Positions 3,233-40,929 of a stretch of 44,320 nucleotides of DNA are shown here, piece by piece. Positions within the stretch are counted from its first letter, which is position 1; each line of letters opens with the position of its first letter. This DNA is from Escherichia phage vB_EcoA_fTuEco01, in sequence record MZ031013.1; one strand, written 5' to 3'. The notes under the pieces were generated by a model. That model was not told where the DNA came from. It worked only from the letters and a program-made list of their open reading frames with translations, and searched no databases. Position numbers and translations under genes: made by a program.

Positions 3233-4117
3233 ATGACTACTGAAAACACCCTCCTGTCTGTCCGCGAAGCTGCAACCGCTGAGATTAAGCAGCATTTGGA
3301 TAATATCGGCACTTCTTACATCAAAGTAGGTGCTTGTCTGAATGAGTTACGCGGAGACTTCGAAGGTCAAAAAGAGTTCTTAGCCTATGTTGAAGCAGAG
3401 TTCGGCATCAAGAAAGCACAATGCTACAAGCTGATGAGTGTAGCCCGTGTCTTTGAAGGTGACGAACGATTCAAAGGCGTGGCTATGCGTGTAATGCTGG
3501 CGCTTGTTCCTTTCGCTGATGAGAGTATCATCATGGAGAAGGCCGCAGAACTTGCCGCAGAGGGCAAGCTGGACACTAACGCCGTAAACGCCCTAATTGA
3601 GTCTAAGAAAGAGCCAAAGGCCGAGACGGTACAATCTAAGGCTGAGCCAGTAAAACCGCAGGAGAACGCGGCTGAGGCCGCAGAATCACAGGAAACGCAA
3701 GCGCCGCAGGTAGTGCCGCCAATGAGTGAGCCGGACACCGACGAATCCGCACCGTGGGAGGGCGAAAGCAAGCCGGAAGCACCTAAGGCTGCGCCTCTGG
3801 ACAACACTGCTAACACAGAGAACGCCGCCATGGCTGGCCTGTTGGCACAAATTAAGGCACTGACTGAGCAATTACAGGCGGCTAACGACCGCATCGCAGC
3901 TCTAACCAGTGCACGTGAAAGCAAGAAGGCAGCCGCGCCTATGCTCCCACAATTCAAATCCAAATGTTTCTATGCTCGCTTGGGTTTGAGTGCTGAGGAG
4001 GCAGAGAAGAAAACAGCAGTGAACAAGGCACGCCGCGAACTGGTTAAACTGGGATACGGTGAAGGCCATGAGGCATGGCCCTTAATCTCTGAGGCAGTAG
4101 AAGAATTAACTAAGTAA
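3233..4117 (+). CDS. Hypothetical early protein, 294 aa, with a low-complexity Ala/Glu/Pro/Lys-rich linker and a C-terminal coiled-coil
   Basis: ATG at 3233 preceded by AAGGTGA. It sits at the position of T7 gene 0.7 but has no kinase motifs that I can see. Confidence 0.55.
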   Translation: MTTENTLLSVREAATAEIKQHLDNIGTSYIKVGACLNELRGDFEGQKEFLAYVEAEFGIKKAQCYKLMSVARVFEGDERFKGVAMRVMLALVPFADESIIMEKAAELAAEGKLDTNAVNALIESKKEPKAETVQSKAEPVKPQENAAEAAESQETQAPQVVPPMSEPDTDESAPWEGESKPEAPKAAPLDNTANTENAAMAGLLAQIKALTEQLQAANDRIAALTSARESKKAAAPMLPQFKSKCFYARLGLSAEEAEKKTAVNKARRELVKLGYGEGHEAWPLISEAVEELTK

Positions 4118-4180
4118 CCTTATCGGTGGCATCTTCTTAGGTGTCACCTATTAAGGTTTCTTTCACTAGGAGTAAACAAG

Positions 4181-6808
4181 ATGCAAGACCTACACGCTAT
4201 TCAACTTCAACTTGAAGAAGAAATGTTTAACGGCGGTATCCGTCGCTTTGAAGCGGACCAACAACGCCAGATTGCATCCGGTAATGAATCAGACACGGCA
4301 TGGAATCGCCGTTTATTGTCCGAGTTAATCGCGCCAATGGCTGAAGGTATTCAGGCATACAAGGAAGAGTATGAAGGTAAAAGAGGCCGTGCACCGCGTG
4401 CATTAGCTTTCATTAACTGCGTAGAAAACGAAGTGGCAGCATATATCACGATGAAAATCGTTATGGATATGCTGAATACAGACGTTACCTTACAAGCAAT
4501 CGCTATGAATGTAGCGGACCGCATCGAAGACCAAGTACGTTTTAGCAAGCTGGAAGGTCACGCAGCTAAGTACTTTGAGAAAGTGAAGAAGTCGCTTAAG
4601 GCTAGCAAGACTAAATCTTATCGTCATGCGCACAACGTAGCGGTAGTAGCTGAGAAATCTGTTGCTGACCGTGACGCGGATTTCTCCCGTTGGGAGGCAT
4701 GGCCTAAAGATACCTTGCTACAAATCGGTATGACCTTGCTAGAAATACTGGAAAATAGTGTATTCTTCAATGGTCAGCCTGTCTTTCTTCGCACCTTGCG
4801 CACTAATGGTGGCAAGCATGGCGTTTACTACTTACAGACCAGTGAACACGTAGGGGAATGGATTACAGCATTTAAAGAACATGTAGCGCAACTTAGCCCG
4901 GCTTATGCACCTTGCGTTATACCTCCGCGTCCGTGGGTTTCTCCTTTTAATGGCGGTTTTCACACTGAGAAGGTAGCAAGTCGTGTGCGTCTTGTTAAAG
5001 GCAGCCGTGAACACGTCCGCAAGCTGACCAAAAAGCAAATGCCAGCGGTTTACAAGGCTGTTAACGCTTTGCAGGCGACTAAATGGCAGGTTAACAAGGA
5101 AGTTTTACAGGTTGTTGAGGACGTAATACGGCTTGATTTAGGCTATGGCGTACCTTCCTTCAAACCACTCATCGACCGCGAGAACAAGCCAGCTAATCCG
5201 GTGCCGTTAGAGTTCCAGCACCTGCGAGGCCGTGAACTGAAAGAAATGTTAACACCGGAACAATGGCAAGCCTTCATCAACTGGAAAGGTGAATGCACCA
5301 AGCTGTATACCGCTGAGACTAAGCGCGGCAGCAAATCGGCGGCGACCGTCCGCATGGTAGGGCAGGCCCGTAAATACAGCCAATTTGACGCAATATACTT
5401 CGTGTATGCTCTGGACAGCCGCAGCCGCGTCTACGCGCAATCTAGCACGCTCTCTCCGCAATCAAACGACTTAGGCAAGGCATTGCTCCGTTTTACCGAA
5501 GGGCAGCGTCTTGATAGCGCTGAGGCGCTTAAGTGGTTTTTGGTGAACGGGGCTAATAACTGGGGTTGGGATAAGAAAACTTTTGACGTGCGCACCGCTA
5601 ACGTGCTGGATAGTGAATTTCAAGACATGTGCCGCGACATTGCAGCGGATCCGCTGACCTTCACTCAATGGGTAAATGCCGACTCCCCTTACGGCTTCCT
5701 TGCATGGTGCTTTGAATATGCGCGTTATCTGGATGCACTGGATGAAGGCACGCAAGACCAATTCATGACGCACCTCCCAGTCCATCAAGATGGTAGTTGT
5801 TCTGGTATCCAGCACTACAGTGCTATGCTACGCGATGCAGTAGGTGCGAAAGCGGTAAACCTTAAGCCCTCTGACTCACCTCAAGATATTTATGGTGCCG
5901 TTGCGCAGGTAGTAATTCAGAAGAATTATGCATACATGAATGCAGAGGATGCGGAAACCTTCACTTCTGGCAGCGTGACTTTAACAGGTGCAGAACTTCG
6001 TAGCATGGCTAGTGCGTGGGATATGATAGGAATCACTCGCGGCCTGACCAAAAAGCCTGTAATGACACTACCTTATGGCAGCACACGTCTAACCTGCCGT
6101 GAATCAGTGATTGATTATATCGTTGATTTGGAAGAAAAAGAGGCCCAACGGGCTATTGCGGAAGGGCGTACCGCCAATCCTGTACATCCTTTTGATAATG
6201 ACCGCAAAGACAGCCTGACACCTAGCGCAGCTTATAACTATATGACAGCTTTAATCTGGCCTTCTATTTCGGAAGTGGTTAAAGCTCCTATAGTGGCAAT
6301 GAAAATGATTCGTCAGCTTGCACGTTTCGCAGCTAAAAGAAACGAAGGCTTAGAATATCCCTTACCAACTGGCTTCATCTTGCAACAAAAGATAATGGCT
6401 ACCGATATGCTCCGCGTATCCACTTGCTTGATGGGTGAAATCAAGATGAGTCTCCAGATTGAAACAGATGTAGTTGATGAAACGGCAATGATGGGTGCGG
6501 CTGCTCCTAACTTCGTCCATGGTCACGATGCTAGCCACCTGATTCTGACTGTATGTGACCTAGTGGATAAAGGTATTACATCCATTGCAGTCATCCATGA
6601 TTCTTTCGGTACTCATGCAGGACGTACCGCAGACCTGCGGGATAGCTTAAGGGAAGAAATGGTTAAGATGTATCAAAACCATAATGCCCTGCAAAACCTG
6701 CTAGATGTGCACGAAGAGCGTTGGTTAGTAGACACCGGAATCCAAGTACCAGAGCAAGGAGAGTTTGACCTTAACGAAATCTTAGTTTCAGACTATTGTT
6801 TCGCATAA
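4181..6808 (+). CDS. Single-subunit DNA-directed RNA polymerase (T7 gene 1-like), 875 aa
   Basis: [22 protein letters not shown] and the C-terminal ILVSDYCFA correspond to T7 RNAP motifs ([22 protein letters not shown], ...FAFA). Size is close to SP6 RNAP. Confidence 0.95.
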
Positions 6809-25086: not shown

Positions 25087-25824
25087 ATGCCTGTAATTAG
25101 ACAAACCAGTAAAGTAGGACATATGATGGAAGATGTGGCCTTCCAGATTATTGATAGTAAGCTGGAAGCGGTAAACTTGTGTATGCGAGCTATTGGTCGT
25201 GAGGGTGTGGATTCTCTCGACTCAGGTGACTTGGACGCAGAAGACGCAAGCAAGATGATTGACATCGTATCCCAGCGGTTTCAGTACAACAAAGGAGGTG
25301 GCTGGTGGTTCAATCGTGAACCAAACTGGCAGATTGCACCTGATACCAATGGTGAAGTCAATCTGCCTAACAACTGCCTAGCAGTATTGCAGTGTTATGC
25401 TTTAGGTGAGAAGAAAGTACCCATGACTATGCGAGCAGGTAAGCTCTACTCTACATGGAGTCATACCTTTGATATGCGTAAGCATGTGAATGCTAATGGT
25501 ATGATTCGTCTTACCTTACTCACCTTACTTCCATATGAGCATCTACCTACTAGTGTAATGCAGGCTATTGCCTATCAAGCTGCTGTAGAGTTTATTGTGT
25601 CTAAGGATGCAGATCAGACTAAGCTAGCCACTGCACAGCAGATTGCCACTCAACTTCTTATGGATGTGCAATCCGAACAAATGTCACAAAAGCGACTGAA
25701 TATGCTTGTGCATAACCCTACGCAGCGTCAGTTCGGCATTATGGCGGGTGGTTCTCAGAATGTACCTGCTTACTCTCATTCACCATATGATAGTTGGGCA
25801 CTTCGTCCGTGGGAGGATCGTTAA
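25087..25824 (+). CDS. Tail tubular protein A (T7 gene 11-like), 245 aa
   Basis: AGGAGG RBS 4 nt before ATG 25087; synteny capsid - tubular A - tubular B. Confidence 0.75.
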   Translation: MPVIRQTSKVGHMMEDVAFQIIDSKLEAVNLCMRAIGREGVDSLDSGDLDAEDASKMIDIVSQRFQYNKGGGWWFNREPNWQIAPDTNGEVNLPNNCLAVLQCYALGEKKVPMTMRAGKLYSTWSHTFDMRKHVNANGMIRLTLLTLLPYEHLPTSVMQAIAYQAAVEFIVSKDADQTKLATAQQIATQLLMDVQSEQMSQKRLNMLVHNPTQRQFGIMAGGSQNVPAYSHSPYDSWALRPWEDR

Positions 25825-28226
25825 TGGAAGTACAAGGTTCATTAGGGAGGCAAATCCAAGGGATTAGCCAGCAACCTCCAGCGGTACGTCTTGATGGTCA
25901 ATGTACGACTATGGTGAACATGGTCCCTGATGTAGTGAATGGGACTCAATCCCGCATGGGTACAACTCACATTGCTAAGCTCTTGGATGAAGGTACAGAT
26001 AATATGGCAACGCACCATTATCGCAGGGGTGAGGGGGATGAAGAGTATTTCTTCACCTTAAAGAAAGGGCAAGTGCCAGAGATATTTGATAAGCATGGAC
26101 GCAAGTGCAATGTCATCTCTCAAGATGCACCTATGACCTACCTTTCTGAAGTTGTTAACCCTAGGGAAGATGTGCAATTCATGACTATAGCTGATGTTAC
26201 TTTTATGCTTAACCGTAGGAAAGTGGTTAAAGTTAGTAATAGGAAGTCACCTAAAGTTGGAGATAAAGCCATTGTGTTTTGTGCATATGGTCAATACGGT
26301 ACATCTTATTCTATCATAATTAATGGAACTACAGCTGCTAGTTTTAAAACACCAGATGGGGGAAGTGCAGAACATGTTGAACAAATACGAACGGAACGTA
26401 TCACTTCTGAATTGTACTCCAAGTTGCAGCAATGGAGTGGTGTGAATGACTATGAAATACAAAGAGATGGTACGAGCATATTTATAGAGAGACGCGATGG
26501 TAAAAGTTTCACAGTAACAACTACCGATGGTGCAAAAGGTAAGGACTTAGTGGCTATCAAGAATAAAGTTAGCTCTACTGACCTACTCCCTTCTCGTGCG
26601 CCTGCTGGTTATAAAGTACAAGTGTGGCCTACTGGCAGCAAACCTGAGTCTCGTTACTGGCTGCAAGCTGAGCCTAAAGAGGGAAACCTTGTGTCTTGGA
26701 AAGAAACAATAGCTGCTGATGTATTACTTGGGTTTGATAAAGGCACAATGCCTTACATTATTGAACGTACAGGTATTATTGACGGTATAGCTCAATTCAA
26801 GTTAAGACAAGGTGATTGGGAAGATCGTAAAGTAGGGGACGACTTGACTAACCCTATGCCCTCTTTTATTGATGAGGAAGTGCCCCAGACAATAGGTGGG
26901 ATGTTCATGGTACAGAACCGTCTATGCTTTACAGCAGGCGAAGCGGTTATTGCTTCTCGTACATCATACTTCTTCGATTTCTTTCGTTATACGGTTATCT
27001 CTGCACTGGCAACTGACCCATTTGATATTTTCTCAGATGCGAGTGAAGTTTATCAATTGAAACACGCAGTAACCTTAGATGGCGCTACCGTGTTATTCTC
27101 TGATAAGTCACAATTCATTTTGCCAGGAGATAAACCGCTAGAGAAATCCAACGCCTTACTCAAGCCTGTCACAACATTTGAAGTTAACAATAAAGTGAAG
27201 CCAGTGGTAACTGGTGAATCGGTAATGTTTGCCACTAATGATGGTTCTTACTCTGGTGTACGAGAGTTCTATACAGACTCTTATAGTGACACTAAGAAGG
27301 CACAAGCAATCACAAGTCATGTGAATAAACTCATCGAAGGTAACATTATCAACATGGCAGCAAGTACCAATGTCAACCGATTGCTTGTCACTACTGATAA
27401 GTATCGTAACATAATTTATTGCTATGATTGGTTATGGCAAGGTACAGACCGTGTACAATCAGCATGGCATGTATGGGAGTGGCCTATGGGTACAAAGGTG
27501 CGAGGTATGTTTTATTCTGGTGAATTACTTTATCTACTCCTTGAGCGAGGCGATGGCGTCTATCTGGAGAAGATGGACATGGGTGATGCACTAACCTATG
27601 GTTTGAATGACCGCATCAGAATGGATAGGCAAGCAGAGTTGATCTTCAAGCATTTTAAAGCAGAAGATGAATGGATATCTGAACCACTTCCTTGGACTCC
27701 TACTAACCCAGAACTTTTGGATTGCATCTTAATAGAAGGGTGGGATTCATATATTGGAGGTTCTTTCCTGTTCAAATATAACCCTAGTGATAACACCTTG
27801 TCTACAACCTTTGACATGCATGATGATAACCACGTAAAAGCGAAGGTTATTGTTGGTCAGATTTACCCTCAAGAGTTTGAACCTACACCTGTAGTTATCA
27901 GAGATAGGCAAGATCGTGTATCCTATATTGATGTACCTGTTGTGGGGTTGGTTCACCTTAATCTTGATATGTATCCTGATTTCTCTGTGGAAGTTAAGAA
28001 TGTGAAGAGTGGTAAAGTACGCAGGGTGCTAGCGTCAAACCGTATAGGTGGTGCTCTCAACAACACAGTAGGTTATGTTGAACCAAGGGAGGGTGTCTTC
28101 AGATTCCCACTGAGGGCTAAGAGTACGGATGCTGTTTATCGTATTATTGTAGAATCACCTCATACATTCCAGCTTCGCGATATTGAGTGGGAAGGGAGCT
28201 ACAATCCAACCAAAAGGAGGGTCTAA
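25824..28226 (+). CDS. Tail tubular protein B (T7 gene 12-like), 800 aa
   Basis: TAATG overlap with the upstream gene and GGGAGG RBS; size matches T7 gp12 (794 aa). Confidence 0.75.
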   Translation: MEVQGSLGRQIQGISQQPPAVRLDGQCTTMVNMVPDVVNGTQSRMGTTHIAKLLDEGTDNMATHHYRRGEGDEEYFFTLKKGQVPEIFDKHGRKCNVISQDAPMTYLSEVVNPREDVQFMTIADVTFMLNRRKVVKVSNRKSPKVGDKAIVFCAYGQYGTSYSIIINGTTAASFKTPDGGSAEHVEQIRTERITSELYSKLQQWSGVNDYEIQRDGTSIFIERRDGKSFTVTTTDGAKGKDLVAIKNKVSSTDLLPSRAPAGYKVQVWPTGSKPESRYWLQAEPKEGNLVSWKETIAADVLLGFDKGTMPYIIERTGIIDGIAQFKLRQGDWEDRKVGDDLTNPMPSFIDEEVPQTIGGMFMVQNRLCFTAGEAVIASRTSYFFDFFRYTVISALATDPFDIFSDASEVYQLKHAVTLDGATVLFSDKSQFILPGDKPLEKSNALLKPVTTFEVNNKVKPVVTGESVMFATNDGSYSGVREFYTDSYSDTKKAQAITSHVNKLIEGNIINMAASTNVNRLLVTTDKYRNIIYCYDWLWQGTDRVQSAWHVWEWPMGTKVRGMFYSGELLYLLLERGDGVYLEKMDMGDALTYGLNDRIRMDRQAELIFKHFKAEDEWISEPLPWTPTNPELLDCILIEGWDSYIGGSFLFKYNPSDNTLSTTFDMHDDNHVKAKVIVGQIYPQEFEPTPVVIRDRQDRVSYIDVPVVGLVHLNLDMYPDFSVEVKNVKSGKVRRVLASNRIGGALNNTVGYVEPREGVFRFPLRAKSTDAVYRIIVESPHTFQLRDIEWEGSYNPTKRRV

Positions 28227-28948
28227 TGGCTATAGGTTCAGCCGTTATGGCTGGTATGTCTTCTATTGGTAGCATGTTTGCAGGCAGTGGTGCAGCAGCC
28301 GCTGCTGGAGGTGCTGCCGCAGGTGGCGGAGGTTTGCTAGGTTCACTAGGTGGATTCCTAAGTGGCTCTACTGCTGGTTTCTCTAATGCTGGCCTTCTTG
28401 GTGCTGGCCTTCAAGGGTTAGGCTTGATTGGTGATCTATTTGGTGGAAGTGATGAAGCCAAGGCGATGAAGAAAGCACAAGAAGAGCAATGGCGGCAGCA
28501 GCTTATTGCTACACAAGAGGCGTACAAGACAGTGGCAGACGCAGAACGTTCTGCTGCTAAACAATATCATGCAGATGCAATCAGTAATCAGGCTTCACTG
28601 CTACAGCAGCGAGCACAGGTTGCATTACTTGCTGGGGCTACTGGTACTGGTGGTAATTCTGTGTCCTCTATGCTTAATGACTTAGCAGCAGATGGCGGCA
28701 GGAACCAGAGTACCATCATTGATAACTATGAGAATCAGAAGATTAATTTCACCAACCAACTTAAGTCTATCCAACGTGGTGGTCAGATGCAGATGCGTGA
28801 GTTTAAGAAGCCTTCTGCTATGAGTACCTTGGTTCAAGGTATTCCAAGTCTGGCATCTGCCTATGTAACTGGTAGTAAGTCTGGCAAGGCATTGGGTAAA
28901 GCCTTAACTGATTCTCGTACATATTCATCTGGAACAAGAGGTATTTAA
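28226..28948 (+). CDS. Internal virion protein with Gly-rich hydrophobic N-terminus (T7 gp14-like), 240 aa
   Basis: TAATG overlap; N-terminal AGMSSIGSMFAGSGAAAAAGGAAAGGGGLLGSLGGFLSG is membrane-inserting-like; position in the internal-core gene block. Confidence 0.65.
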   Translation: MAIGSAVMAGMSSIGSMFAGSGAAAAAGGAAAGGGGLLGSLGGFLSGSTAGFSNAGLLGAGLQGLGLIGDLFGGSDEAKAMKKAQEEQWRQQLIATQEAYKTVADAERSAAKQYHADAISNQASLLQQRAQVALLAGATGTGGNSVSSMLNDLAADGGRNQSTIIDNYENQKINFTNQLKSIQRGGQMQMREFKKPSAMSTLVQGIPSLASAYVTGSKSGKALGKALTDSRTYSSGTRGI

Positions 28949-31896
28949 TGGCAATTGAGCGACAAGCAGTACAAGGTCTGCCACAAGTGCAGGCCACTTC
29001 TCCTAATGTCATGACCTTTGCACCTCAACAAGTGGGAGGTGTGGAGGCTGGCGTGGCTTCTACCTCCGGTAGTAGGTTTATCGAAGACCTTATTCGTGCA
29101 GCAAGCAGCGTGGCTGATGTTACCACTGGTATCCTTAATCAGAAGATTGAGGAAGATAAGGTTGTTCAAATGGAACGGGCATATAACGGATTAATGCCTT
29201 CTGAGGATGCAACTCGTGGTGGCGCTCGTGCTAACATGCTTGTCAAAGCTCAACTGCTAGCTAATGATGAAGCAGCACGAATGAAAGACATGGCTACTCG
29301 TTTCCAAGGAACGGATGACGAATGGACACAACTTATGGTTGACTCTCGTAATGAGATGCAGAATAAGCTGTTCCGGCAATACCCTGAGTTGCAAGGTGAC
29401 AAAGATACTATGCGTATGGTCACTAATGTCTTCCAAGAACAGCAGCCTCAGATTTGGGCTACACGAACCCAGCATAAACTTGACCGTGAACAAGCCGACC
29501 GTGAGGATACCTTTGACGGGCGAGTGGCTTCTACTTGGGACTCTAATATTGACCATGAAGCCTCTGGCTATGCTTTACAGGAACGAATCCGCGAAGGTCT
29601 GACTCAAGGATTACTACCTGAACAGATGCACAAGAAGTTAGTCCAGCGGGCAATTTCACTTGCACAAGGTGGTGATGTTAGCATGGCTGAAGCCCTGAAG
29701 TATGTGAAGGACGATAAGGGCGTTTCTGTTTATGCTAAGAATCCACAGCTTATCACAGCCATCACTAGTGGTAATGCAGTTTGGGCTAGGAATAATGTAG
29801 CTGATGTAACTCGTATGTCTTTCGAAGTTAAAGAATCATACCTTGCAGGTGATTTAACTGATGAAGAATTGTTGGAACGAGCACAGCACATTAATAATCT
29901 GACAGGTAACTCTGTCTTCTCTAATCCAGAACTAGAGGCACTGATGCGCCAACGGGCTAAGCAGAATGCAGAGCTAGGTGCAATGCAGGATATGCGACGT
30001 GAGCTTTACTCCGACCGCCTGACTGGCTTCCAAGGTAAGACTGATAAAGAGAAGAAGGCTTACATTGATGTTATCAAACAGGATAGCCAACTTTATGCAG
30101 ACCAGCAAATCAAACAACGTGGCTTGGACCCTTACAGTCAAGAGGCTGAAGCTATTCGTGGTGCAGTGGAAGTGCAGCGCCTGCAATTCATGAACTCCAA
30201 AGGTTTAGTGGATGATACCTTTGAATCTCGTATCAAGGCTATGGAATCCATGCTATCACCTGAGCACTTTGCTAAAGGTGAACCACAGGAGTTAATGACC
30301 ATTCGTCAGTTGTGGGAGCAGTTACCTGAAGAAAGTCGAGGTGTCTTCGGTGACACTGTGAACGGTTATATGGATAACTACAATACTGCATTACAAATGG
30401 GAGAGACACCTTTGCAGGCTGCAAGGTTTGCCCGTGAAGCACAGCAGAAATTCTCTCGTACTGAGAAGGAAACCAAGAAGTTCAACTCCGCTATTGGAGA
30501 TGCACTGGATGAGGTATCTGGTGCTGGCTGGTTTGATGGTAAAACCGAGGTGTCAGACTTAGGTAAAGCTATTGCGGAAGAAGAGTTACGAGCTAAGGCC
30601 AATATGTTGTGGTCTAGCGGTATGCGTAACATGGATTCTATCAAGAAGGCTTTAATCACTTGGGGCAATAAACGCTACACTCAATCAGAGGATGCAAAGA
30701 CTTCCGGTGGCTATTTCATTAAAGGTGATTACACTTCTGCATCTGATATGCTTATGTCAGTTGGGAAAGGTGTAAACCCTACCGATGTCCCTCTGGCGCT
30801 TGGTAGGTATGTAGAAACACAGATGCCAGAATTGAAGAAGGAGCTTCAAGAGTGGGAAACTAAGGATGATGTGTACATTGATTACAATGAACAGAAAGGA
30901 ACTTTTGTGATTCGTGCTGGTGCAGCAGGTCGCCCTCTTTCTGGAGTAATCCCTGTAACTTCTTTGGATACCACTTCACTACTGGATTCTGCCTATCAGA
31001 AGAAAGTAGAAGAACGAGATAAAGGCGAGTATGTTCCTCCCTATCGTACAGATATCGGTGCACAAGAACCAATGCCAGCTAAGCCAACTGCCAAAGATAT
31101 TGGTAAATTAGGATTAGCTAACTTCCTCATGTCTTCTGCTTTTGCTTCTGGTGAGAATCTACCTTCTAACTTCGAGATTAACTATCGAGGCAATATGAAA
31201 CAATTCTATGACAAGCTAGCTATGGATGAGAATAAAGATAAAGTTGGCTTTAATAAGGCAACTGGAACCTTTACTCCATATAAAGACGCTCACGGTGAGT
31301 CTATCGGTTACGGTCATTTCTTAACGGAAGAAGAGAAGCGAGACGGGTATATTAAGATTGGCGATGAACTAGTTCCCTATCGAGGGTCTATGTCTCAGCT
31401 TACAGAGAGTAAGGCTCGCGCTCTTATGGAGCAAGATGCTAGGAAGCATGTGCCTCCTACTCGTGACTGGAAGATTCCGTTTGACCAGATGCATCCTGCA
31501 CAGCAACGTGGCTTGATGGATTTAACCTACAATTTAGGTAAAGGTGGAATCCAGAACTCACCGCGTGCTCTTGCTGCATTCAAAGCTGGTAAACTTACGG
31601 AAGGCTTTATCGAAATGCTGGGTACTGCATCAAGTGAAGGTAAACGTATTCCGGGCCTACTGAAGCGACGCGCTGAGGCATACAATATGGCAGCTGCTGG
31701 TGGTGTACCTAAGATCACAGAAGTGGAGACTAGGGAAGATGGCTCTATGTGGGTTAAGTTTGGTGGACCTATGCCAGCAGGCTCTGTTTCTGCGTGGACG
31801 CATAAACGTATTGGAGCCGATGGCTGGTATCAGGTTTATGAGGCTGCACCTACCAAGTTAGCTAAAGACTCTAAGGTAGGTAAAGTTAAATTGTAG
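28948..31896 (+). CDS. Internal virion protein with a C-terminal lysozyme-like (T4 lysozyme / GH24-type) domain, 982 aa
   Basis: The C-terminal region YKDAHGESIGYGHFL...QRGLMDLTYNLGKGG...GKRIPGLLKRRAEAY parallels T4 lysozyme blocks (YKDTEGYYTIGIGH..., ALINMVFQMGETG..., RAKRVITTF) as I recall them. Confidence 0.7.
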   Translation: MAIERQAVQGLPQVQATSPNVMTFAPQQVGGVEAGVASTSGSRFIEDLIRAASSVADVTTGILNQKIEEDKVVQMERAYNGLMPSEDATRGGARANMLVKAQLLANDEAARMKDMATRFQGTDDEWTQLMVDSRNEMQNKLFRQYPELQGDKDTMRMVTNVFQEQQPQIWATRTQHKLDREQADREDTFDGRVASTWDSNIDHEASGYALQERIREGLTQGLLPEQMHKKLVQRAISLAQGGDVSMAEALKYVKDDKGVSVYAKNPQLITAITSGNAVWARNNVADVTRMSFEVKESYLAGDLTDEELLERAQHINNLTGNSVFSNPELEALMRQRAKQNAELGAMQDMRRELYSDRLTGFQGKTDKEKKAYIDVIKQDSQLYADQQIKQRGLDPYSQEAEAIRGAVEVQRLQFMNSKGLVDDTFESRIKAMESMLSPEHFAKGEPQELMTIRQLWEQLPEESRGVFGDTVNGYMDNYNTALQMGETPLQAARFAREAQQKFSRTEKETKKFNSAIGDALDEVSGAGWFDGKTEVSDLGKAIAEEELRAKANMLWSSGMRNMDSIKKALITWGNKRYTQSEDAKTSGGYFIKGDYTSASDMLMSVGKGVNPTDVPLALGRYVETQMPELKKELQEWETKDDVYIDYNEQKGTFVIRAGAAGRPLSGVIPVTSLDTTSLLDSAYQKKVEERDKGEYVPPYRTDIGAQEPMPAKPTAKDIGKLGLANFLMSSAFASGENLPSNFEINYRGNMKQFYDKLAMDENKDKVGFNKATGTFTPYKDAHGESIGYGHFLTEEEKRDGYIKIGDELVPYRGSMSQLTESKARALMEQDARKHVPPTRDWKIPFDQMHPAQQRGLMDLTYNLGKGGIQNSPRALAAFKAGKLTEGFIEMLGTASSEGKRIPGLLKRRAEAYNMAAAGGVPKITEVETREDGSMWVKFGGPMPAGSVSAWTHKRIGADGWYQVYEAAPTKLAKDSKVGKVKL

Positions 31897-31910
31897 TACC
31901 TAACTCAAGG

Positions 31911-31932
31911 CTTGTCTCACATGTGAGACAGG
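31911..31932. repeat. Conserved palindrome (cttGTCTCACATGTGAGACagg), copy 6, followed by TCTTTA
   Basis: Perfect 16-bp core at 31914..31929, lying between two internal virion protein genes. Confidence 0.7.
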
Positions 31933-31960
31933 TCTTTATGATAGGCACTATGGAGGAACT

Positions 31961-34900
31961 ATGGAACAAGATATTAAGACTAATTGGGCTGGATATGTCC
32001 AGTCTACTCCTGAGCCGTTTTCTATTGAGGCGGCTCCGGTATCGGCTCCTACGATACGCCAGCGTAATGAGTTACAAGAGCAAGTTCTTGAAGCCAAAGC
32101 TGATGCGGACATCTTAGGTGCTGTAGGTGCTGCCTTCCAGAATGAATGGTTGGCATTCGGAGGTAAGCGATGGTATGACCGTGCCACTGCTGATTTCACA
32201 CCCCAACCTGACTTTGAAATCCAACCAGAGCAACGTGAAGCTCTTCGCTTCAAATACGGAACGGATATGATGCAGACAATCACTGAGGGTGTTCGTTCTG
32301 AGGATGAATTAAACTTCCGTATTCAGAATGCTGATGAAGACCTTGAGCGCAATAAGCGCATTGCTCAGGCTGGATGGGCTGGCTCTGTGGCAACGATTGG
32401 CGCTGCTGTGCTTGACCCAGTGGGTTGGGTTGCCTCTATCCCAACTGGCGGTGCAGCCAAAGTCGGCCTCGTAGGTCGTGCCGTGCGTGGAGCTATCGCC
32501 GCTGGCGTGAGCAATGCCGCTATTGAATCCGTGTTAGTACAAGGCGACATGACTCGTGATTTAGATGACATTATGGTAGCACTAGGCTCCGGTATGGCTA
32601 TGGGTGGCGTTATTGGCGCTGTAGCGCGTGGTAGGGCCACTAAGCTCAGTGAGCAAGGAGATGACAGGGCTGCGAGTGTTGTGCGCAGTGCAGACGCAGG
32701 GGACCGCTATGTGCGTGCTGTTGCTGATGACAGTATCGGTGCGATGCGTGTTAAGGGTGAAGAGGTACTCACTGAGGGTGCATTTGATATCTCTAGCAAA
32801 GGTGAAGATTTGCTGAAAACCCTACAGCGGGAAGGTAATGCAATTGATATGACACCTCGCCGCTGGGCCGGAACTATGTCTGCCCTTGGGACTGTCGTGC
32901 ACTCCTCTCAGGATGCTAGTGTTCGTGGCCTCGGTGCTCGCCTGTTTGAGTCTCCGCAAGGTTTAGGTATGCAAAAGGCATCTGCCAGTCTTATGCAGAA
33001 TACCAACTTGAATCGACTGAAGTCTGCTGATATGAACCGTTTCAATGACGGGTTTGACTTATGGCTCAAAGAGAATAATATCAATCCAGTTGCAGGCCAT
33101 ACTAACTCTCACTATGTGCAACAATATAATGAGAAGGTATGGGAAGCTGTACGCATCGGTATGGATGAGTCTACGCCTAAGTCTATCCGTATGGCAGCAG
33201 AGGGACAGCAAGCTATGTATCGTGAAGCATTAGCATTACGTCAACGCTCTGGTGAAGCTGGGTTTGAAAAGGTTAAAGCAGATGATAAGTACATGCCTGA
33301 TATTTTTGACAGTATGAAGGCTCGTCGTCAATTTGGTATGCACGATAAGGAGGACATCATTGAGCTATTCTCTCGTGCATACCAGAATGGTTCTCGTAAG
33401 GTTCCAAAGGAAGTGGCTGATGAGATTGCACGTGCACAAGTAAACCGTGTTGTGGATGCTACTCTGACAGGACGTATGAGTTTCGAAAAGGCTATGTCTG
33501 GTCAGACTAAAGCAGAGTATGAAGCAATAATGCGCAAGGCAGGCTTCAGTGATGAAGAAATTGAAAAGATGGTAGAAGCTCTGGATAATAAAGAAACCAG
33601 AGATAATATCTCTAACCGAGCTAAGATGAGTTTAGGCTTAGATGTTACTCAAGAGTACAATGGCATTCGTATGCGTGACTTTATGAATACTAACGTGGAA
33701 GAGTTAACAGATAACTACATGAAGGAAGCGGCAGGTGGTGCTGCCTTGGCTCGTCAAGGTTTCTCTACCTATCAGGCTGCACTTAATGCAATTGACCTTG
33801 TAGAGCGAAATGCACGAAATGCAGCTAAAGATACAAAAGCACACGCACAATTCGAAGCAGAGTCTGCTAAGATTCGTCAATCAGAGCCTGATTACAAGAA
33901 GGCACAAGCGAAGATTGAAGAGTTAAAGAAGCGACTTAAATTGAAAGAGAAAGACGAAGCAGCGGGTCTGGCTATTGATGAGGAAATCCGTCAGATGCGA
34001 GAAGGGCTTCGCTTGATTATGGGTAAATCTATCGATGCAGACCCACAGGCTTTATCTACTAAAATGCTGCGTCGTGGTCGTGACATTACAGGTGTACTTC
34101 GCTTAGGTCAGATGGGCTTCGCACAGCTAGGTGAACTTGCTAACTTCATGGGTGAGTTTGGTATTGCTGCAACCACTATAGCTTTAGGTAAGCAATTCCG
34201 CTTTACATCTAAGGCTTTGCGGAGCGGTGATGGCTTCTTCCGAGATAAGAACTTGGCAGAAGTAGAGAGGATGGTAGGTTACATTGGTGAGGATAACTGG
34301 CTAACAACCAAGGGTGCACGTCCAGATGAGTTTGGTGATGTAACCACAGTAAGAGGGATGATGGCTCACTTTGACCAATCCATGAACTCAATACGTCGTG
34401 CTCAGACCAACCTATCACTCTTCCGCATGGCACAGGGTTCTCTGGAGCGAATGACCAATAGGCAAATAGCTTTGTCTTTCATTGACCACCTTGAAGGCAA
34501 GAAGATTATTCCTCAGAAGAAACTGGAGGAACTTGGTCTTACTCAGGAGTTCATGACTAATCTACAGAAGCACTATGATGCTAACTCTAAAGGTTCTGGC
34601 TTGCTTGGCTTTGATACAATGCCTTATGCCATGGGTGAAACTTTAGCTAATGCTATTCGTCGTAAGTCAGGTCTAATTATCCAACGTAACTTCATTGGTG
34701 ATGAAGGTATCTGGATGAACAAAGCACTAGGTAAGACATTTGCACAGCTTAAGTCATTCTCTCTTGTATCTGGTGAGAAGCAATTTGGTCGAGGGATTCG
34801 CCACGATAAAATTGGTCTTGCTAAGAAGACAGCTTACGGGTTTGCTTTGGGTTCAATAGTGTATGCGGCAAAAGCCTATGTGAACTCTATTGGGCGAGAA

Positions 34901-35269
34901 GACCAAGATGAATATTTGGAAGAGAAGTTATCGCCTAAAGGGTTGGCCTTTGGTGCAATGGGTATGATGAGTACAACTGCTGTATTTAGTCTAGGTGGAG
35001 ATTTCTTAGGTGGCCTAGGTGTTCTACCTTCTGAGTTAGTACAATCCCGTTATGAGGCTGGCTTTCAGACTAAGGGTTTGATAGACCAAATACCACTAGT
35101 AGGTGTTGGTCAAGATGCATATCGTTTAGCAGATTCTATAACTAAATATGCAGAGGGTGATACAGAAGGTGTAGATGTGGCACGTAGGGCTTTACGCTTA
35201 GTGCCTCTAACTAATGTAATAGGAATCCAGAACGCATTGCGTTATGGCTTAGATGAACTGGAGGATTGA
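31961..35269 (+). CDS. Internal virion protein, largest core/ejection protein (T7 gp16-like role), 1102 aa
   Basis: GGAGGA RBS; size and position; no lytic transglycosylase motif recognised in it. Confidence 0.7.
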   Translation: MEQDIKTNWAGYVQSTPEPFSIEAAPVSAPTIRQRNELQEQVLEAKADADILGAVGAAFQNEWLAFGGKRWYDRATADFTPQPDFEIQPEQREALRFKYGTDMMQTITEGVRSEDELNFRIQNADEDLERNKRIAQAGWAGSVATIGAAVLDPVGWVASIPTGGAAKVGLVGRAVRGAIAAGVSNAAIESVLVQGDMTRDLDDIMVALGSGMAMGGVIGAVARGRATKLSEQGDDRAASVVRSADAGDRYVRAVADDSIGAMRVKGEEVLTEGAFDISSKGEDLLKTLQREGNAIDMTPRRWAGTMSALGTVVHSSQDASVRGLGARLFESPQGLGMQKASASLMQNTNLNRLKSADMNRFNDGFDLWLKENNINPVAGHTNSHYVQQYNEKVWEAVRIGMDESTPKSIRMAAEGQQAMYREALALRQRSGEAGFEKVKADDKYMPDIFDSMKARRQFGMHDKEDIIELFSRAYQNGSRKVPKEVADEIARAQVNRVVDATLTGRMSFEKAMSGQTKAEYEAIMRKAGFSDEEIEKMVEALDNKETRDNISNRAKMSLGLDVTQEYNGIRMRDFMNTNVEELTDNYMKEAAGGAALARQGFSTYQAALNAIDLVERNARNAAKDTKAHAQFEAESAKIRQSEPDYKKAQAKIEELKKRLKLKEKDEAAGLAIDEEIRQMREGLRLIMGKSIDADPQALSTKMLRRGRDITGVLRLGQMGFAQLGELANFMGEFGIAATTIALGKQFRFTSKALRSGDGFFRDKNLAEVERMVGYIGEDNWLTTKGARPDEFGDVTTVRGMMAHFDQSMNSIRRAQTNLSLFRMAQGSLERMTNRQIALSFIDHLEGKKIIPQKKLEELGLTQEFMTNLQKHYDANSKGSGLLGFDTMPYAMGETLANAIRRKSGLIIQRNFIGDEGIWMNKALGKTFAQLKSFSLVSGEKQFGRGIRHDKIGLAKKTAYGFALGSIVYAAKAYVNSIGREDQDEYLEEKLSPKGLAFGAMGMMSTTAVFSLGGDFLGGLGVLPSELVQSRYEAGFQTKGLIDQIPLVGVGQDAYRLADSITKYAEGDTEGVDVARRALRLVPLTNVIGIQNALRYGLDELED

Positions 35270-36435: not shown

Positions 36436-36718
36436 ACATGCAGCTACGGAAGACGAGGTTGGCATTCTACATGGTGCTATTACCAAAATCTTTAATAAGA
36501 AAGCACAGGCAATACTGGACACTATAGAAGAAGACCCAGATGCAGCACTGCATTTAGTCTCTGGTAAAGACATTGGAGCTATGTGTAAGTGGGTTCTTGA
36601 TAATGGTATTACCGCTACACCCGCTGCACAGCAGGAGGAGTCCAAGCTATCTAAGCGCCTCAAGGCTATCCGAGAGGCATCAAGTGGCAAGATTATTCAA
36701 TTCACTAAGGAGGATTGA
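36419..36718 (+). CDS. Putative terminase small subunit, 99 aa
   Basis: GTG start 5 nt after GGAGGAGG; lies immediately upstream of, and is translationally coupled (TGATG) to, the large terminase gene. Confidence 0.45.
   Translation: MSVHNKHAATEDEVGILHGAITKIFNKKAQAILDTIEEDPDAALHLVSGKDIGAMCKWVLDNGITATPAAQQEESKLSKRLKAIREASSGKIIQFTKED
36510..36530 (+). promoter_or_regulatory. Phage RNAP promoter embedded in the putative small terminase gene
   Basis: CAATACTGGACACTATAGAAG; in frame it encodes ILDTIEE. Confidence 0.6.
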
Positions 36719-38616
36719 TGGCTAAGGCAAGAGAATCACAAGCGGAGGCTCTTGCCAGATGGGAGATGCTACAGGAGTTACAGCAGACCTTTCCTTACAC
36801 AGCGGAAGGTTTGCTTCTCTTTGCAGACACAGTTATTCATAACTTAATTGCAGGCAACCCTCATCTGATTCGTATGCAGGCTGATATCTTGAAGTTCCTA
36901 TTCTACGGACACAAGTATCGCCTCATCGAAGCGCCTCGTGGTATCGCTAAGACAACACTATCAGCAATCTATACAGTATTCCGTATCATTCATGAACCGC
37001 ATAAGCGTATCATGGTTGTATCCCAAAACGCCAAGCGAGCAGAGGAAATCGCAGGTTGGGTAGTTAAAATCTTCCGGGGCTTAGACTTTCTTGAGTTTAT
37101 GCTGCCGGATATCTACGCTGGGGACCGTGCATCCGTTAAGGCGTTTGAGATTCATTACACCCTACGTGGTAGTGATAAGTCTCCTTCTGTATCCTGTTAC
37201 TCAATCGAAGCAGGTATGCAGGGTGCTCGTGCTGATATTATTCTAGCGGATGACGTAGAGTCGATGCAGAATGCTCGTACGGCAGCGGGCCGTGCCTTGC
37301 TTGAGGAACTGACTAAGGAGTTTGAATCTATCAACCAGTTTGGGGACATCATTTACCTTGGTACACCTCAGAACGTAAACTCTATCTATAACAACCTACC
37401 TGCTCGTGGTTACTCTGTTCGTATCTGGACTGCGCGTTACCCTTCAGTAGAGCAAGAGCAATGTTATGGCGACTTCCTTGCACCTATGATTGTTCAAGAT
37501 ATGAAGGACAACCCAGCACTTCGCTCAGGGTACGGGTTGGATGGTAATAGTGGTGCACCTTGTGCCCCTGAAATGTATGATGATGAAGTCCTGATTGAGA
37601 AGGAAATCTCTCAGGGTGCTGCTAAGTTCCAGCTTCAGTTCATGCTTAACACTCGCATGATGGATGCTGACAGATACCCATTACGCCTGAACAATCTAAT
37701 CTTCACCTCGTTTGGTACAGAGGAAGTCCCTGTGATGCCTACGTGGAGTAATGATTCCATAAACATCATTGGTGATGCACCTAAGTATGGTAACAAGCCT
37801 ACGGATTTCATGTACAGACCTGTAGCTCGCCCATACGAATGGGGTGCTGTCTCCCGCAAGATTATGTATATTGACCCTGCGGGTGGTGGTAAGAACGGAG
37901 ATGAGACGGGTGTAGCCATCGTATTCCTGCACGGCACATTCATTTATGTGTATCAGTGCTTTGGTGTACCTGGCGGATACCGAGAGTCGTCCCTGAATCG
38001 CATTGTGCAGGCCGCAAAGCAGGCGGGTGTTAAAGAGGTATTCATTGAGAAGAACTTTGGTCATGGCGCGTTTGAGGCGGTAATTAAGCCGTACTTTGAA
38101 CGAGAGTGGCCTGTAACTCTGGAAGAGGATTACGCCACCGGACAGAAAGAGTTGCGTATCATTGAGACGCTGGAGCCGCTCATGGCAGCCCATAGGCTTA
38201 TCTTCAATGCAGAGATGGTGAAGTCAGACTTTGAGTCGGTACAGCACTATCCGCTTGAACTACGCATGTCCTACAGTCTTTTCAATCAAATGTCGAACAT
38301 AACGATTGAGAAGAACAGCCTCCGGCACGATGACCGCCTAGACGCCCTGTATGGCGCTATACGGCAATTAACTTCTCAGATAGACTATGACGAGGTTACA
38401 CGGATTAATCGCCTCAGAGCGCAGGAGATGCGCGATTACATCCATGCTATGAATACACCTCATCTACGCAGGGCAATGCTATATGGAGATTACGGTACTG
38501 AGCGAAGAGTGACCAACACTTCCGTAGCGATGCAGCAGCGAGTTTACGGGCAGAACTACCGAAATAAATCGGCAAGCAGAAATACACTTTCTGCAAGGAT
38601 TTCAAGGACTTATTAA
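36718..38616 (+). CDS. Terminase large subunit (T7 gene 19-like), 632 aa
   Basis: Walker A-like APRGIAKTT, a Walker B-like hydrophobic stretch followed by DD (ADIILADDVES), and a C-terminal nuclease region; AAGGAGG RBS. Confidence 0.9.
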   Translation: MAKARESQAEALARWEMLQELQQTFPYTAEGLLLFADTVIHNLIAGNPHLIRMQADILKFLFYGHKYRLIEAPRGIAKTTLSAIYTVFRIIHEPHKRIMVVSQNAKRAEEIAGWVVKIFRGLDFLEFMLPDIYAGDRASVKAFEIHYTLRGSDKSPSVSCYSIEAGMQGARADIILADDVESMQNARTAAGRALLEELTKEFESINQFGDIIYLGTPQNVNSIYNNLPARGYSVRIWTARYPSVEQEQCYGDFLAPMIVQDMKDNPALRSGYGLDGNSGAPCAPEMYDDEVLIEKEISQGAAKFQLQFMLNTRMMDADRYPLRLNNLIFTSFGTEEVPVMPTWSNDSINIIGDAPKYGNKPTDFMYRPVARPYEWGAVSRKIMYIDPAGGGKNGDETGVAIVFLHGTFIYVYQCFGVPGGYRESSLNRIVQAAKQAGVKEVFIEKNFGHGAFEAVIKPYFEREWPVTLEEDYATGQKELRIIETLEPLMAAHRLIFNAEMVKSDFESVQHYPLELRMSYSLFNQMSNITIEKNSLRHDDRLDALYGAIRQLTSQIDYDEVTRINRLRAQEMRDYIHAMNTPHLRRAMLYGDYGTERRVTNTSVAMQQRVYGQNYRNKSASRNTLSARISRTY

Positions 38617-38702: not shown

Positions 38703-38709
38703 TTAGTAT

Positions 38710-38729
38710 GGGTGTACTCCTGTACACCC
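38710..38729 (+). promoter_or_regulatory. Perfect hairpin GGGTGTAC-tcct-GTACACCC in the leader of the paralogue cluster
   Basis: 8-bp perfect stem with a 4-nt loop, read directly from the sequence. Confidence 0.45.
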
Positions 38730-38773
38730 TATTCCTTACTACCTTACTATATTTACATAATAGGAGAGAGACA

Positions 38774-39049
38774 ATGGCTAATGATTATAGTAGTCAACCA
38801 TTAACAGGTAAGTCTAAGAGAAAGCAGGTACAACCTGTAAGTGAAGAACTAATGCTTCCGGTAATCCCAAAAGAGGCAGCTAGTAAGAAAAGCAATGTTA
38901 TTAATGATGCCACCAAATCAGGTAAACAGAAAGGGGCCATGGTATGCCTTGAAGTGGACGGTGCATGGCAGATTGCTATCGCTGTTGATGGCAAAGAAGA
39001 CTCAGAGTGGAAGTTAGTGACAAGGGAACCCACTGTTACCCCAGTTTAA
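38774..39049 (+). CDS. Hypothetical protein P1, 91 aa, first of three tandem paralogues
   Basis: TAGGAGAGAG RBS; shares the ...SGKQ.GAMV...IA.A..G.E...W... core with the next two ORFs. Confidence 0.6.
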   Translation: MANDYSSQPLTGKSKRKQVQPVSEELMLPVIPKEAASKKSNVINDATKSGKQKGAMVCLEVDGAWQIAIAVDGKEDSEWKLVTREPTVTPV

Positions 39050-39067
39050 GAGAAGGAGGAAGATTAC

Positions 39068-39355
39068 ATGGCTAAATATGGTACTACAGGTTCTGTTACG
39101 GGTCAGGCTTTTCGAGTGAAAGCAGTACAAACTATTGCAACGGCAATTCCTATGCCTGTTGTTGCTGAAGAAGACCTTAAGAAGAAAGATCATCCTATCA
39201 ACATCAAATATTTATCAGGTAAACAGAGAGGTGCAATGGTTGTTATTTCGAGAGCGGACACAACCGTGCATATTGCTGTTGCACGTGGTAGTGAGCCCAC
39301 CGACGTTTGGGATGTAACTGCTATGGACCCCATTGCTGTTACACCAGGGGAGTGA
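39068..39355 (+). CDS. Hypothetical protein P2, 95 aa, second tandem paralogue
   Basis: GAAGGAGGA RBS; KYLSGKQRGAMVVISRADTTVHIAVARGSEPTDVWDV aligns with P1 and P3. Confidence 0.6.
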   Translation: MAKYGTTGSVTGQAFRVKAVQTIATAIPMPVVAEEDLKKKDHPINIKYLSGKQRGAMVVISRADTTVHIAVARGSEPTDVWDVTAMDPIAVTPGE

Positions 39356-39362
39356 TATTATC

Positions 39363-40040
39363 GTGTTAGGTATTACAGGACAACGAAGTGTAAGTCATCA
39401 AGCTAAGGTTGCCACGGAAGTGGCTCCTATCGTTGATATCTCAGATGTGTCTGACGTTAACTCTTATCTAAACCAAAAGTACCTATCAGGCAAACAGGAA
39501 GGGTATACTGTTATGACTAAGAAAGGTTCACGTTATTCATTGTATGCTGCAACAGGTTCTAAGCCAGAAGATAAGTGGTTGCCTTTAGAGCAAGCAACCC
39601 TACCTGATTCGAGTGCATTAGAGCTAATTGACACCATCGATGTTGAAGTTGCAAGTGCAAGCGACACAGTAGAGGTTAATGTAACCAAAGAGAGGACTGT
39701 GTGCATCCAGACTCCTATGAAGGACTTAGCAGGTGATACAGTTTACCGGCAAGAATTGACTGCCAACATTAACCTTACCATTAATGAAAACGGAAGCCCA
39801 AGCGATACGGTTAAATTAAACATATCAATTCCTAATTTGCCAGGAACATCTAGTGGGTCTTACTATACAGTTGACAATGTGCTGTGTACTTCTTTTGGAG
39901 ACGACAGTCCTGTTATTGCCAATATAGATGTCGATAAGGCTACCACTAACTTGATTGCTGTTACACTTCGTAAAGAGACGGCAACAGATATTAGGCTGTC
40001 TCTTGTAATTAGGTGGTCAATGCCAGTGGAGGTTGTATAA
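39363..40040 (+). CDS. Hypothetical protein P3, about 225 aa, third paralogue with a C-terminal extension carrying internal DTVEVNVT / DTVKLNIS repeats
   Basis: N-terminal 90 aa align with P1/P2 (LGITGQ...KYLSGKQEGYTVM...AATGSKPEDKW). GTG start at 39363 is inferred; the track starts at an upstream TTG. Confidence 0.55.
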   Translation: MLGITGQRSVSHQAKVATEVAPIVDISDVSDVNSYLNQKYLSGKQEGYTVMTKKGSRYSLYAATGSKPEDKWLPLEQATLPDSSALELIDTIDVEVASASDTVEVNVTKERTVCIQTPMKDLAGDTVYRQELTANINLTINENGSPSDTVKLNISIPNLPGTSSGSYYTVDNVLCTSFGDDSPVIANIDVDKATTNLIAVTLRKETATDIRLSLVIRWSMPVEVV

Positions 40041-40384
40041 TGCTTAACAAATACTTCAAGCGTAAAGAGCTTGCTTGCCGTTGTGGGTGCGGTACATCCA
40101 CTGTTGATGCTGAATTACTACAGGTAGTCACAGATGTGCGTGAGCACTTTGGTTCCCCTGTAGTTATCACTTCTGGGCATCGCTGTGCTAAGCACAATGC
40201 TAATGTAGGAGGAGCTAAGAACTCCATGCATCTTACTGGTAAGGCTGCTGACATTAAGGTACGAGGCATCTTACCTTCTGATGTACATAAGTATCTTACT
40301 GATAAGTACCAAGGCAAGTATGGTATTGGTAAGTATACCTCCTTTACTCATATTGATGTACGTGACGGGTGTGCACGATGGTAG
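40040..40384 (+). CDS. Endolysin, peptidase M15-type zinc peptidoglycan peptidase, 114 aa
   Basis: SGHRCAKHNANVGGAKNSMHLTGKAADI matches the M15 motifs (S-x-H-R ... G-G-x-x-x-S-x-H ... A-x-D). TAATG overlap; GGAGGT RBS. Confidence 0.7.
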   Translation: MLNKYFKRKELACRCGCGTSTVDAELLQVVTDVREHFGSPVVITSGHRCAKHNANVGGAKNSMHLTGKAADIKVRGILPSDVHKYLTDKYQGKYGIGKYTSFTHIDVRDGCARW

Positions 40385-40492
40385 GTTGTGTTGCATGGTG
40401 TGAACGCATGGTTGCTAAGGCTTCAGAGGAAGGCAACTATGAAGATTGGCAGAACTACTCAACTTTATTAGCTCAATGGAAAGGGAGATGCA

Positions 40493-40642
40493 ATGAAAAA
40501 GCTGTTCAAATCTAAGAAGGTTGTAGGTGCACTAGTTGCATTGGCAATTGCTCTTGTTTCTGTAGGTCTTGGTGTAGACCTTGGCTCTGGCACGGAATCC
40601 TCTGTGACAGATGTGGTCTGCCAAGTGATCACCTGTGAATAA
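40493..40642 (+). CDS. Small membrane protein, 49 aa, in the lysis cassette (holin/antiholin or lysis regulator candidate)
   Basis: AAGGGAGA RBS; basic N-terminus MKKLFKSKK followed by the hydrophobic VVGALVALAIALVSVGLGV. Under 60 aa, so absent from the track. Confidence 0.4.
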   Translation: MKKLFKSKKVVGALVALAIALVSVGLGVDLGSGTESSVTDVVCQVITCE

Positions 40643-40856
40643 GTTTCTAGAAGTGCTGGCAGGTCTTATTGGCCTGCTTGTCTCTGCTAAGAAGAAACAA
40701 GAAGAGAAGGAGGCACAAAGTGAAGCGAATCATGCTAGCGACAACCCTGCTGATTGGTTCGCTGATCATTTCAGGGTGTCAGACGGCGTTACCAGAGAAT
40801 CCAAAGGTGAAGCCTCTGAAGCCGACGCTTACGGCAGTCTACGAGGTGGACGATAA
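40635..40856 (+). CDS. Putative i-spanin (Rz-like), 73 aa
   Basis: N-terminal transmembrane segment FLEVLAGLIGLLVSA followed by a charged periplasmic region; contains the start of the overlapping lipoprotein ORF. Confidence 0.5.
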   Translation: MNKFLEVLAGLIGLLVSAKKKQEEKEAQSEANHASDNPADWFADHFRVSDGVTRESKGEASEADAYGSLRGGR

Positions 40857-40929
40857 AGTCTGCTTCAGTAAGCCTGACGCTACAAAATTAGGTCTGTACA
40901 TTCTCTCGCTAGAACGCGGGTATAATTAA
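40732..40929 (+). CDS. Putative o-spanin (Rz1-like lipoprotein), 65 aa, overlapping the i-spanin in the +1 frame
   Basis: Signal peptide MLATTLLIGSLIISGC with lipobox LIISG|C, followed by a Pro-rich mature region (PENPKVKPLKPT). Confidence 0.6.
   Translation: MLATTLLIGSLIISGCQTALPENPKVKPLKPTLTAVYEVDDKVCFSKPDATKLGLYILSLERGYN

Follow-up and report, generated by a model that had tools for sequence, protein, structure and literature searches.

A GH24 lysozyme domain near the C-terminus of the gp15-like internal virion protein of Escherichia phage vB_EcoA_fTuEco01

Which protein of the ejection apparatus of Escherichia phage vB_EcoA_fTuEco01 opens the cell wall while the DNA is injected, and is it the enzyme that phage T7 carries for this job, the SLT transglycosylase domain of gp16? 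We addressed this question in the window, by which we mean the whole stretch of DNA analysed (record MZ031013.1, 44.3 kb), taking as our subject gene 35 (28948..31896, + strand), whose 982-amino-acid product combines a gp15-like periplasmic-tunnel body with a C-terminal lysozyme module. On the evidence below, the product of this gene, gp35, is very probably a gp15-type ejection protein (periplasmic tunnel) that bears a fused GH24 lysozyme close to its C-terminus, cuts the wall during injection and does the job of the T7 gp16 SLT.

The sequence is a complete or near-complete genome of a Vectrevirus (Autographiviridae, Molineuxvirinae), from the K1E/K1-5 group of E. coli K1 phages; its first 25 kb are 94-96% identical to several Vectrevirus records, and all large open reading frames (ORFs) lie on the + strand. 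The ORF of gene 35 begins with an ATG at 28948 and its stop codon ends at 31896, giving 982 codons and a calculated protein mass of 109.4 kDa. It shares 99.3% nucleotide identity with K1E gene 35 and 96.9% with the K1-5 counterpart, and gp35 differs from K1E gp35 at five of 982 residues. The PHROGs family phrog_4290, "lysozyme domain-containing protein", matches gp35 from end to end, and this is already the RefSeq name of the K1E, K1-5 and SP6 genes.

The lysozyme domain of gp35

The first-pass annotation of this DNA had placed a lysozyme-like domain at the C-terminus of the 982-residue protein and proposed domain prediction as a check. In line with this, Pfam PF00959 (Phage_lysozyme) matched amino acids 776-910 (nucleotides 31273-31677) over profile positions 9-124 of 125 with 40.6 bits and an E-value of 3.8e-10, well over the curated gathering cut-off of 22.3 bits. 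Besides the PHROGs match above, the domain was recovered by phmmer against PDB sequences, which found T4 lysozyme (T4L; gp35 777-890 aligned to T4L 17-133), by a profile of 30 family members, which returned the same lysozyme match, and by hhalign (E 9e-6). An AlphaFold2 model of amino acids 735-982, built on an 18-sequence alignment, was confident (predicted local distance difference test score, pLDDT, 90.8; predicted template modelling score, pTM, 0.85), and the best PDB matches found for it with Foldseek were all GH24 enzymes or T4L fusion constructs, with probability 1.0. As modelled, the domain has the alpha+beta fold of T4/P22 lysozymes. We place its limits at amino acids 745-915 of 982 (31180..31692, + strand). 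These results confirm the domain, and within GH24 its affinity is with the P22/lambdoid-endolysin branch more than with T4L.

We also asked whether the gp35 domain might be a lytic transglycosylase yielding 1,6-anhydro-MurNAc (MurNAc, N-acetylmuramic acid) like T7 gp16, and not a hydrolytic muramidase. We consider this unlikely. The best structural and sequence matches are GH24 hydrolases, namely those of P22, T4 and DLP12 together with a fungal GH24 muramidase, and the equivalent of T4L Asp20 is conserved in gp35 as D780. Asp20 is the water-activating base of T4L.

Conservation of this and other candidate catalytic residues was counted in gp35 and 29 full-length homologs of 37-97% identity (n = 30). 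These homologs came from a search with the full-length protein; the C-terminal 271 amino acids as query had given three fragments only in the word-indexed search. In the HMMER alignment to T4L, Asp20 corresponds to D780 and Thr26 to S785; both residues belong to the motif YKDAHGESIGYGH (codons of D780 to S785 at 31285..31302, + strand). D780 is present in 28 of the 30 proteins, and the two exceptions have a local insertion and Asp residues close by, while position 785 is Ser in 24, Thr in three and Asn in three, and thus Ser or Thr in 27. E761 (codon at 31228..31230, + strand), our candidate for the equivalent of T4L Glu11, is invariant in all 30 and is followed by an invariant N762; in the AlphaFold2 model it lies at the C-terminal end of a predicted helix (746-762), just as Glu11 closes helix 1 of T4L. 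We chose E761 because it is the only invariant acidic residue at the right place. The resulting spacing is E-x18-D-x4-S (31228-31302, amino acids 761-785), compared with the canonical GH24 E-x8-D-x5-T, and the 10 extra residues between Glu and Asp form a small predicted hairpin.

Beyond the lysozyme fold, amino acids 916-982 (31693..31893, + strand) make up a conserved beta-rich C-terminal extension of 67 residues with pLDDT above 90 and 11 invariant residues, among them D931, G932, S933, M934, F938, G959, W960 and V963. The extension falls outside all GH24 structural alignments, and a Pfam search with the 78-residue C-terminal tail of gp35 returned no match at E<=1. Together with the 10-residue insertion, it could set the Molineuxvirinae ejectosome lysozymes apart as a subtype of their own. 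The tail would then be a new kind of module for murein anchoring or tunnel assembly, with a part in placing or regulating the enzyme, perhaps by holding it inactive inside the capsid; we offer this as a speculative proposal with a small chance of being right. Both the extension and the non-canonical Glu-Asp spacing appear to be undiscussed in the texts consulted, and neither adds much to the interest of the locus.

The gp15-like body and the replacement of the T7 transglycosylase

The remainder of gp35 resembles the T7 tunnel protein in fold. Amino acids 1-728 (28948..31131, + strand) form an almost wholly alpha-helical body that AlphaFold2 and Foldseek indicate to be the structural counterpart of T7 gp15. 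In the full-length AlphaFold2 model (mean pLDDT 75), amino acids 1-92 are predicted to be disordered and amino acids 45-730 are nearly all assigned to helix by DSSP. The best PDB matches of this model in Foldseek were T7 gp15 chains (9jyy_G, 6yt5_A and 7eyb_A; E 8.4e-7 to 7.6e-4), and the PhiM1 ejectosome chain 8vb2_E was also among the matches.

The surrounding gene order runs nozzle, gp14-like protein, the 982-residue protein and gp16-like protein. The nozzle gene (25794-28226) was recognised by PF25675 (E 4.5e-177). Gene 34 (28187..28948, + strand) encodes the T7 gp14-like internal virion protein, a component of the outer-membrane pore, as indicated by PF24072 (T7_gp14, E 5e-33), phrog_805 (internal virion protein, E 7.6e-53) and the K1E annotation; the latter implies a 240-residue version starting at 28226, as opposed to the listed ORF start at 28187. 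Because gene 35 sits between the gp14-like and gp16-like genes and the modelled product resembles T7 gp15 chains most closely among PDB entries, its earlier designation as the middle core protein is correct.

We then turned to gene 36 (31961..35269, + strand), identified by phrog_342 and BLASTP as encoding a T7 gp16-like internal virion protein of 1102 amino acids. Its product, gp36, matched the T7-gp16 profile phrog_342 strongly (E 5.9e-247), though only over positions 162-1227 of 1235, which indicates that the N-terminal transglycosylase module is missing; by BLASTP, amino acids 89-574 aligned to T7 gp16 275-794. Pfam detected no SLT domain in gp36 at E<=0.1, whereas T7 gp16, used as a positive control, gave SLT PF01464 at amino acids 15-127 (E 1.7e-31). 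The lysozyme of gp35 therefore stands, as previously proposed, as the only recognisable muralytic motif among the core genes. The first-pass annotation had further suggested "replacement or relocation" of the T7 domain. Here the two halves fare differently: the enzyme belongs to a different family (GH24 PF00959, not SLT PF01464), is carried by a different subunit and occupies the other end of the polypeptide, which amounts to non-orthologous replacement at a new site and not to relocation of the same domain. Judged from sequence, replacement within the ejectosome is thus supported, the direction of evolutionary change aside.

By analogy with T7 and phiKMV-like phages, gp34, gp35 and gp36 would be stacked on the portal in the internal core of the capsid, with gp35 between the other two. 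At infection the three proteins would be ejected ahead of the DNA through portal and nozzle, gp34 would form a channel in the outer membrane and gp35 would assemble into a periplasm-spanning tube. The lysozyme domains of gp35, pointing outward where the tube passes the murein, would then locally cleave the glycosidic bonds between MurNAc and N-acetylglucosamine (GlcNAc), which would let the tube and gp36 reach and cross the inner membrane. In this way, the role of the N-terminal SLT transglycosylase of T7 gp16 would be met by a non-orthologous enzyme on a different subunit. The parts of this scheme computed here are the identity and fold of the domain, the conservation of the acid and nucleophile-positioning residues, the gene order, the lack of an SLT domain in gp36 and the occurrence of a separate endolysin. 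Stoichiometry, outward orientation, timing and a need for the activity mainly when the murein is highly cross-linked are inferences from the structures of T7 and phiKMV-like phages.

Several observations weigh against this picture of gp35, and the first set concerns the catalytic Glu. No hidden Markov model (HMM) aligned it: with Pfam, phmmer and hhalign alike, the aligned part begins only around amino acid 770-777. The spacing from E to D is x18, not the canonical x8, and MAFFT places its gaps differently from our assignment of E761. The identification of E761 as the catalytic residue is probable, and is drawn from invariance and predicted secondary structure; we attribute the failure of the HMMs to find the Glu to the 10 extra residues between it and the Asp. 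MAFFT L-INS-i put T4L Glu11 and the phiKMV Glu at positions 754/755, candidates that we rejected because these columns are hydrophobic or variable. The first-pass annotation had named the absence of catalytic residues on alignment as the finding that would speak against its proposal; the equivalents of Asp20 and Thr26 did align, and the Glu was left unaligned by the sequence methods. The missing Glu in the Pfam, phmmer and hhalign alignments would favour a lysozyme fold without catalysis, retained in the tunnel to bind peptidoglycan or for structure alone, and the canonical E-x8-D position holds Ala, Thr or Ser in the family (T772 in gp35). This alternative nevertheless appears extremely improbable in view of the invariance of E761 and the conservation of D780 and S785 across the 30 homologs, and also because the K1-5 and SP6 orthologs appear in reviews as virion-associated lysins, with Moak and Molineux 2004 as the source.

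The second set concerns the body of the protein and its activity. The likeness of the body to T7 gp15 is structural only: the TM-scores of gp35 to the T7 gp15 chains are low (0.17-0.29), and BLASTP of gp35 against T7 gp15 was not significant (best E 1.2). Sequence homology to T7 gp15 is a weak criterion here because T7 gp15 itself has no Pfam family; IVP-C proteins, moreover, diverge quickly (Hardies et al. 2016, PMC4819975). Homology of the two bodies would accordingly rest on predicted fold and synteny. Finally, muralytic activity is reported at second hand, in reviews, for the orthologs of gp35, and is presumed for gp35. Even with these points, an active GH24 lysozyme carried on a gp15-type tunnel protein is the reading that we favour.

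Genes 35 and 36 are separated by 64 nt, in which we also noted a perfect 13-bp hairpin (GGCUUGUCUCACA/UGUGAGACAGGUC; 31907-31936, + strand) followed by UUUAU, with an RNA minimum free energy of -21.1 kcal/mol (z = -2.9 against shuffles). Lying in the ejection-protein operon, it could be a terminator, an attenuator or an RNA processing site; a simple terminator scan did not call it. A candidate phage-promoter motif taken from just upstream of gene 36 occurred once, with no repeat elsewhere.

Comparison with other ejectosomes

The lysozyme domain and its replacement of the T7-type SLT are already known, having been annotated and published (PMC8954989, PMC4819975, bioRxiv 10.64898/2026.05.18.726046). 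Swanson et al. (PMC8954989) ascribe the swap relative to T7 to mosaic domain swapping, and Hardies et al. make the same general point on IVP-C homologs. Among the Molineuxvirinae, K1E gp35, K1-5 gp35 (YP_654136.1, which we verified as the ortholog of the gene 35 ORF) and SP6 gp36 are orthologous to the protein studied here, with the same length (978-982 amino acids), gene position and domain layout; the C-terminal 242 amino acids of SP6 gp36 are 61% identical to those of gp35. There is no difference of substance between these orthologs and gp35, and the window represents another Vectrevirus isolate. In the review by Latka et al. 2017 (PMC5380687, Table 2), YP_654136.1 is listed as a 109-kDa and SP6 gp36 as a 107-kDa virion-associated lysozyme, citing Moak and Molineux 2004, and according to a review the zymogram that the first-pass annotation had proposed as a check was run on sister phages in 2004.

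The same architecture is found in the Krylovirinae, where phiKMV gp36 and Ar-KM gp42 likewise consist of an alpha-helical body of about 740 amino acids followed, at almost the same place, by a T4L-like domain. The gp35 domain lies within roughly the last 300 residues of a gp15-like protein, in agreement with the configuration that the Ar-KM preprint defines. The motif YKDAxGxSxGxGH is common to gp35 and phiKMV gp36, where it takes the form YKDADGYSVGLGH, and stands at amino acid 778 in the former and 760 in the latter. Sequence similarity is otherwise marginal. BLASTP matched the catalytic motif only, and the bodies display weak colinear profile similarity (hhalign probability 57%, E 1e-4; amino acids 293-579 against 305-604). 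Unlike gp35, phiKMV gp36 keeps to the canonical E-x8-D spacing; its domain is shorter, and the conserved beta-rich tail is missing. It is the biochemically characterised analogue, the activity of gp36C having been shown experimentally (PMC5380687). In a preprint from 2026 on the phiKMV-like phage Ar-KM (bioRxiv 10.64898/2026.05.18.726046), the "C-terminus of the tunnel protein" configuration is reported for 31 of the 127 Autographivirales genomes in which a domain could be identified. We note that PF00959 did not detect phiKMV gp36 (3867-6560 of the phiKMV sequence) even at E<=1, although the protein is reported to be active; surveys that use Pfam only will therefore undercount ejectosome lysozymes. 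In our own tblastn search, the C-terminal module of gp35 was found at >=80% coverage in 153 phage records, from phages of Escherichia, Salmonella, Klebsiella, Proteus, Erwinia, Pectobacterium, Lelliottia and Vibrio.

The N-terminal SLT (PF01464) of T7 gp16 has the same inferred role, namely local cleavage of murein by an ejected internal core protein, and the Ar-KM preprint puts it at a similar height once the ejectosome is assembled. The two systems differ in that T7 has an SLT at the N-terminus of gp16, while the present phage has a GH24 domain at the C-terminus of a gp15-like protein. GH24 domains also occur in phage endolysins (P22 gp19, DLP12 RrrD, phage 21 R and T4 e), which are free-standing proteins of about 150-165 amino acids, and in the tail lysozyme T4 gp5, which is part of the baseplate spike; the domain of gp35 differs from all of these in its fusion to an ejection protein, its 10-residue Glu-Asp insertion and its 67-residue extension. 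The locus illustrates the modular evolution of the podovirus ejectosome, in which an indispensable wall-cutting function can be supplied by unrelated enzymes on different ejection proteins. The reading of the vB_EcoA_fTuEco01 genome is unchanged, the gene being already annotated as a lysozyme-domain protein, and any practical use is confined to the antibacterial potential of virion-associated lysins, for which phiKMV gp36C is the precedent.

The lysis region and other features

Does the lysozyme of gp35 also serve lysis? For the SP6 group it was once suggested that one enzyme both penetrates the wall at entry and degrades it at lysis, and SP6 is cited by Heineman et al. 2009 (PMC2680503) for a single muralytic gene with both tasks. 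The window, however, contains a separate lysis region (40013-40929), in which a Peptidase_M15_3 endolysin gene (40013-40384, E 5.6e-33) lies just upstream of small ORFs in the holin position and of Rz-like type: a 49-residue ORF (40493-40642) that is the positional counterpart of the annotated K1E holin, and two overlapping Rz/Rz1-like ORFs (40635-40856 and 40669-40929). The region matches K1E genes 43-45, which are annotated as endolysin (K1E gp43), holin and spanin. The older suggestion of one muralytic gene for the SP6 group is therefore disfavoured, and we regard a double role of gp35 as very unlikely, the separate endolysin being the sole basis of our objection. As the endolysin is a peptidase and not a glycosidase, the phage would possess two chemically different wall-degrading activities.

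Two further observations lie outside the ejection and lysis genes. The large subunit of the terminase is a single intact ORF of 633 amino acids (36715-38616), whereas in the K1E reference the homing-endonuclease gene 40.5 divides it into 40A and 40B. Upstream of the endolysin gene, at 38708-40040, three consecutive ORFs (113, 95 and 235 amino acids) have in common a repeated N-terminal module and a recurring 'SGKQ.G' motif; they match phrog_2725, whose label 'acetyl-CoA acetyltransferase' is probably a mis-annotation.

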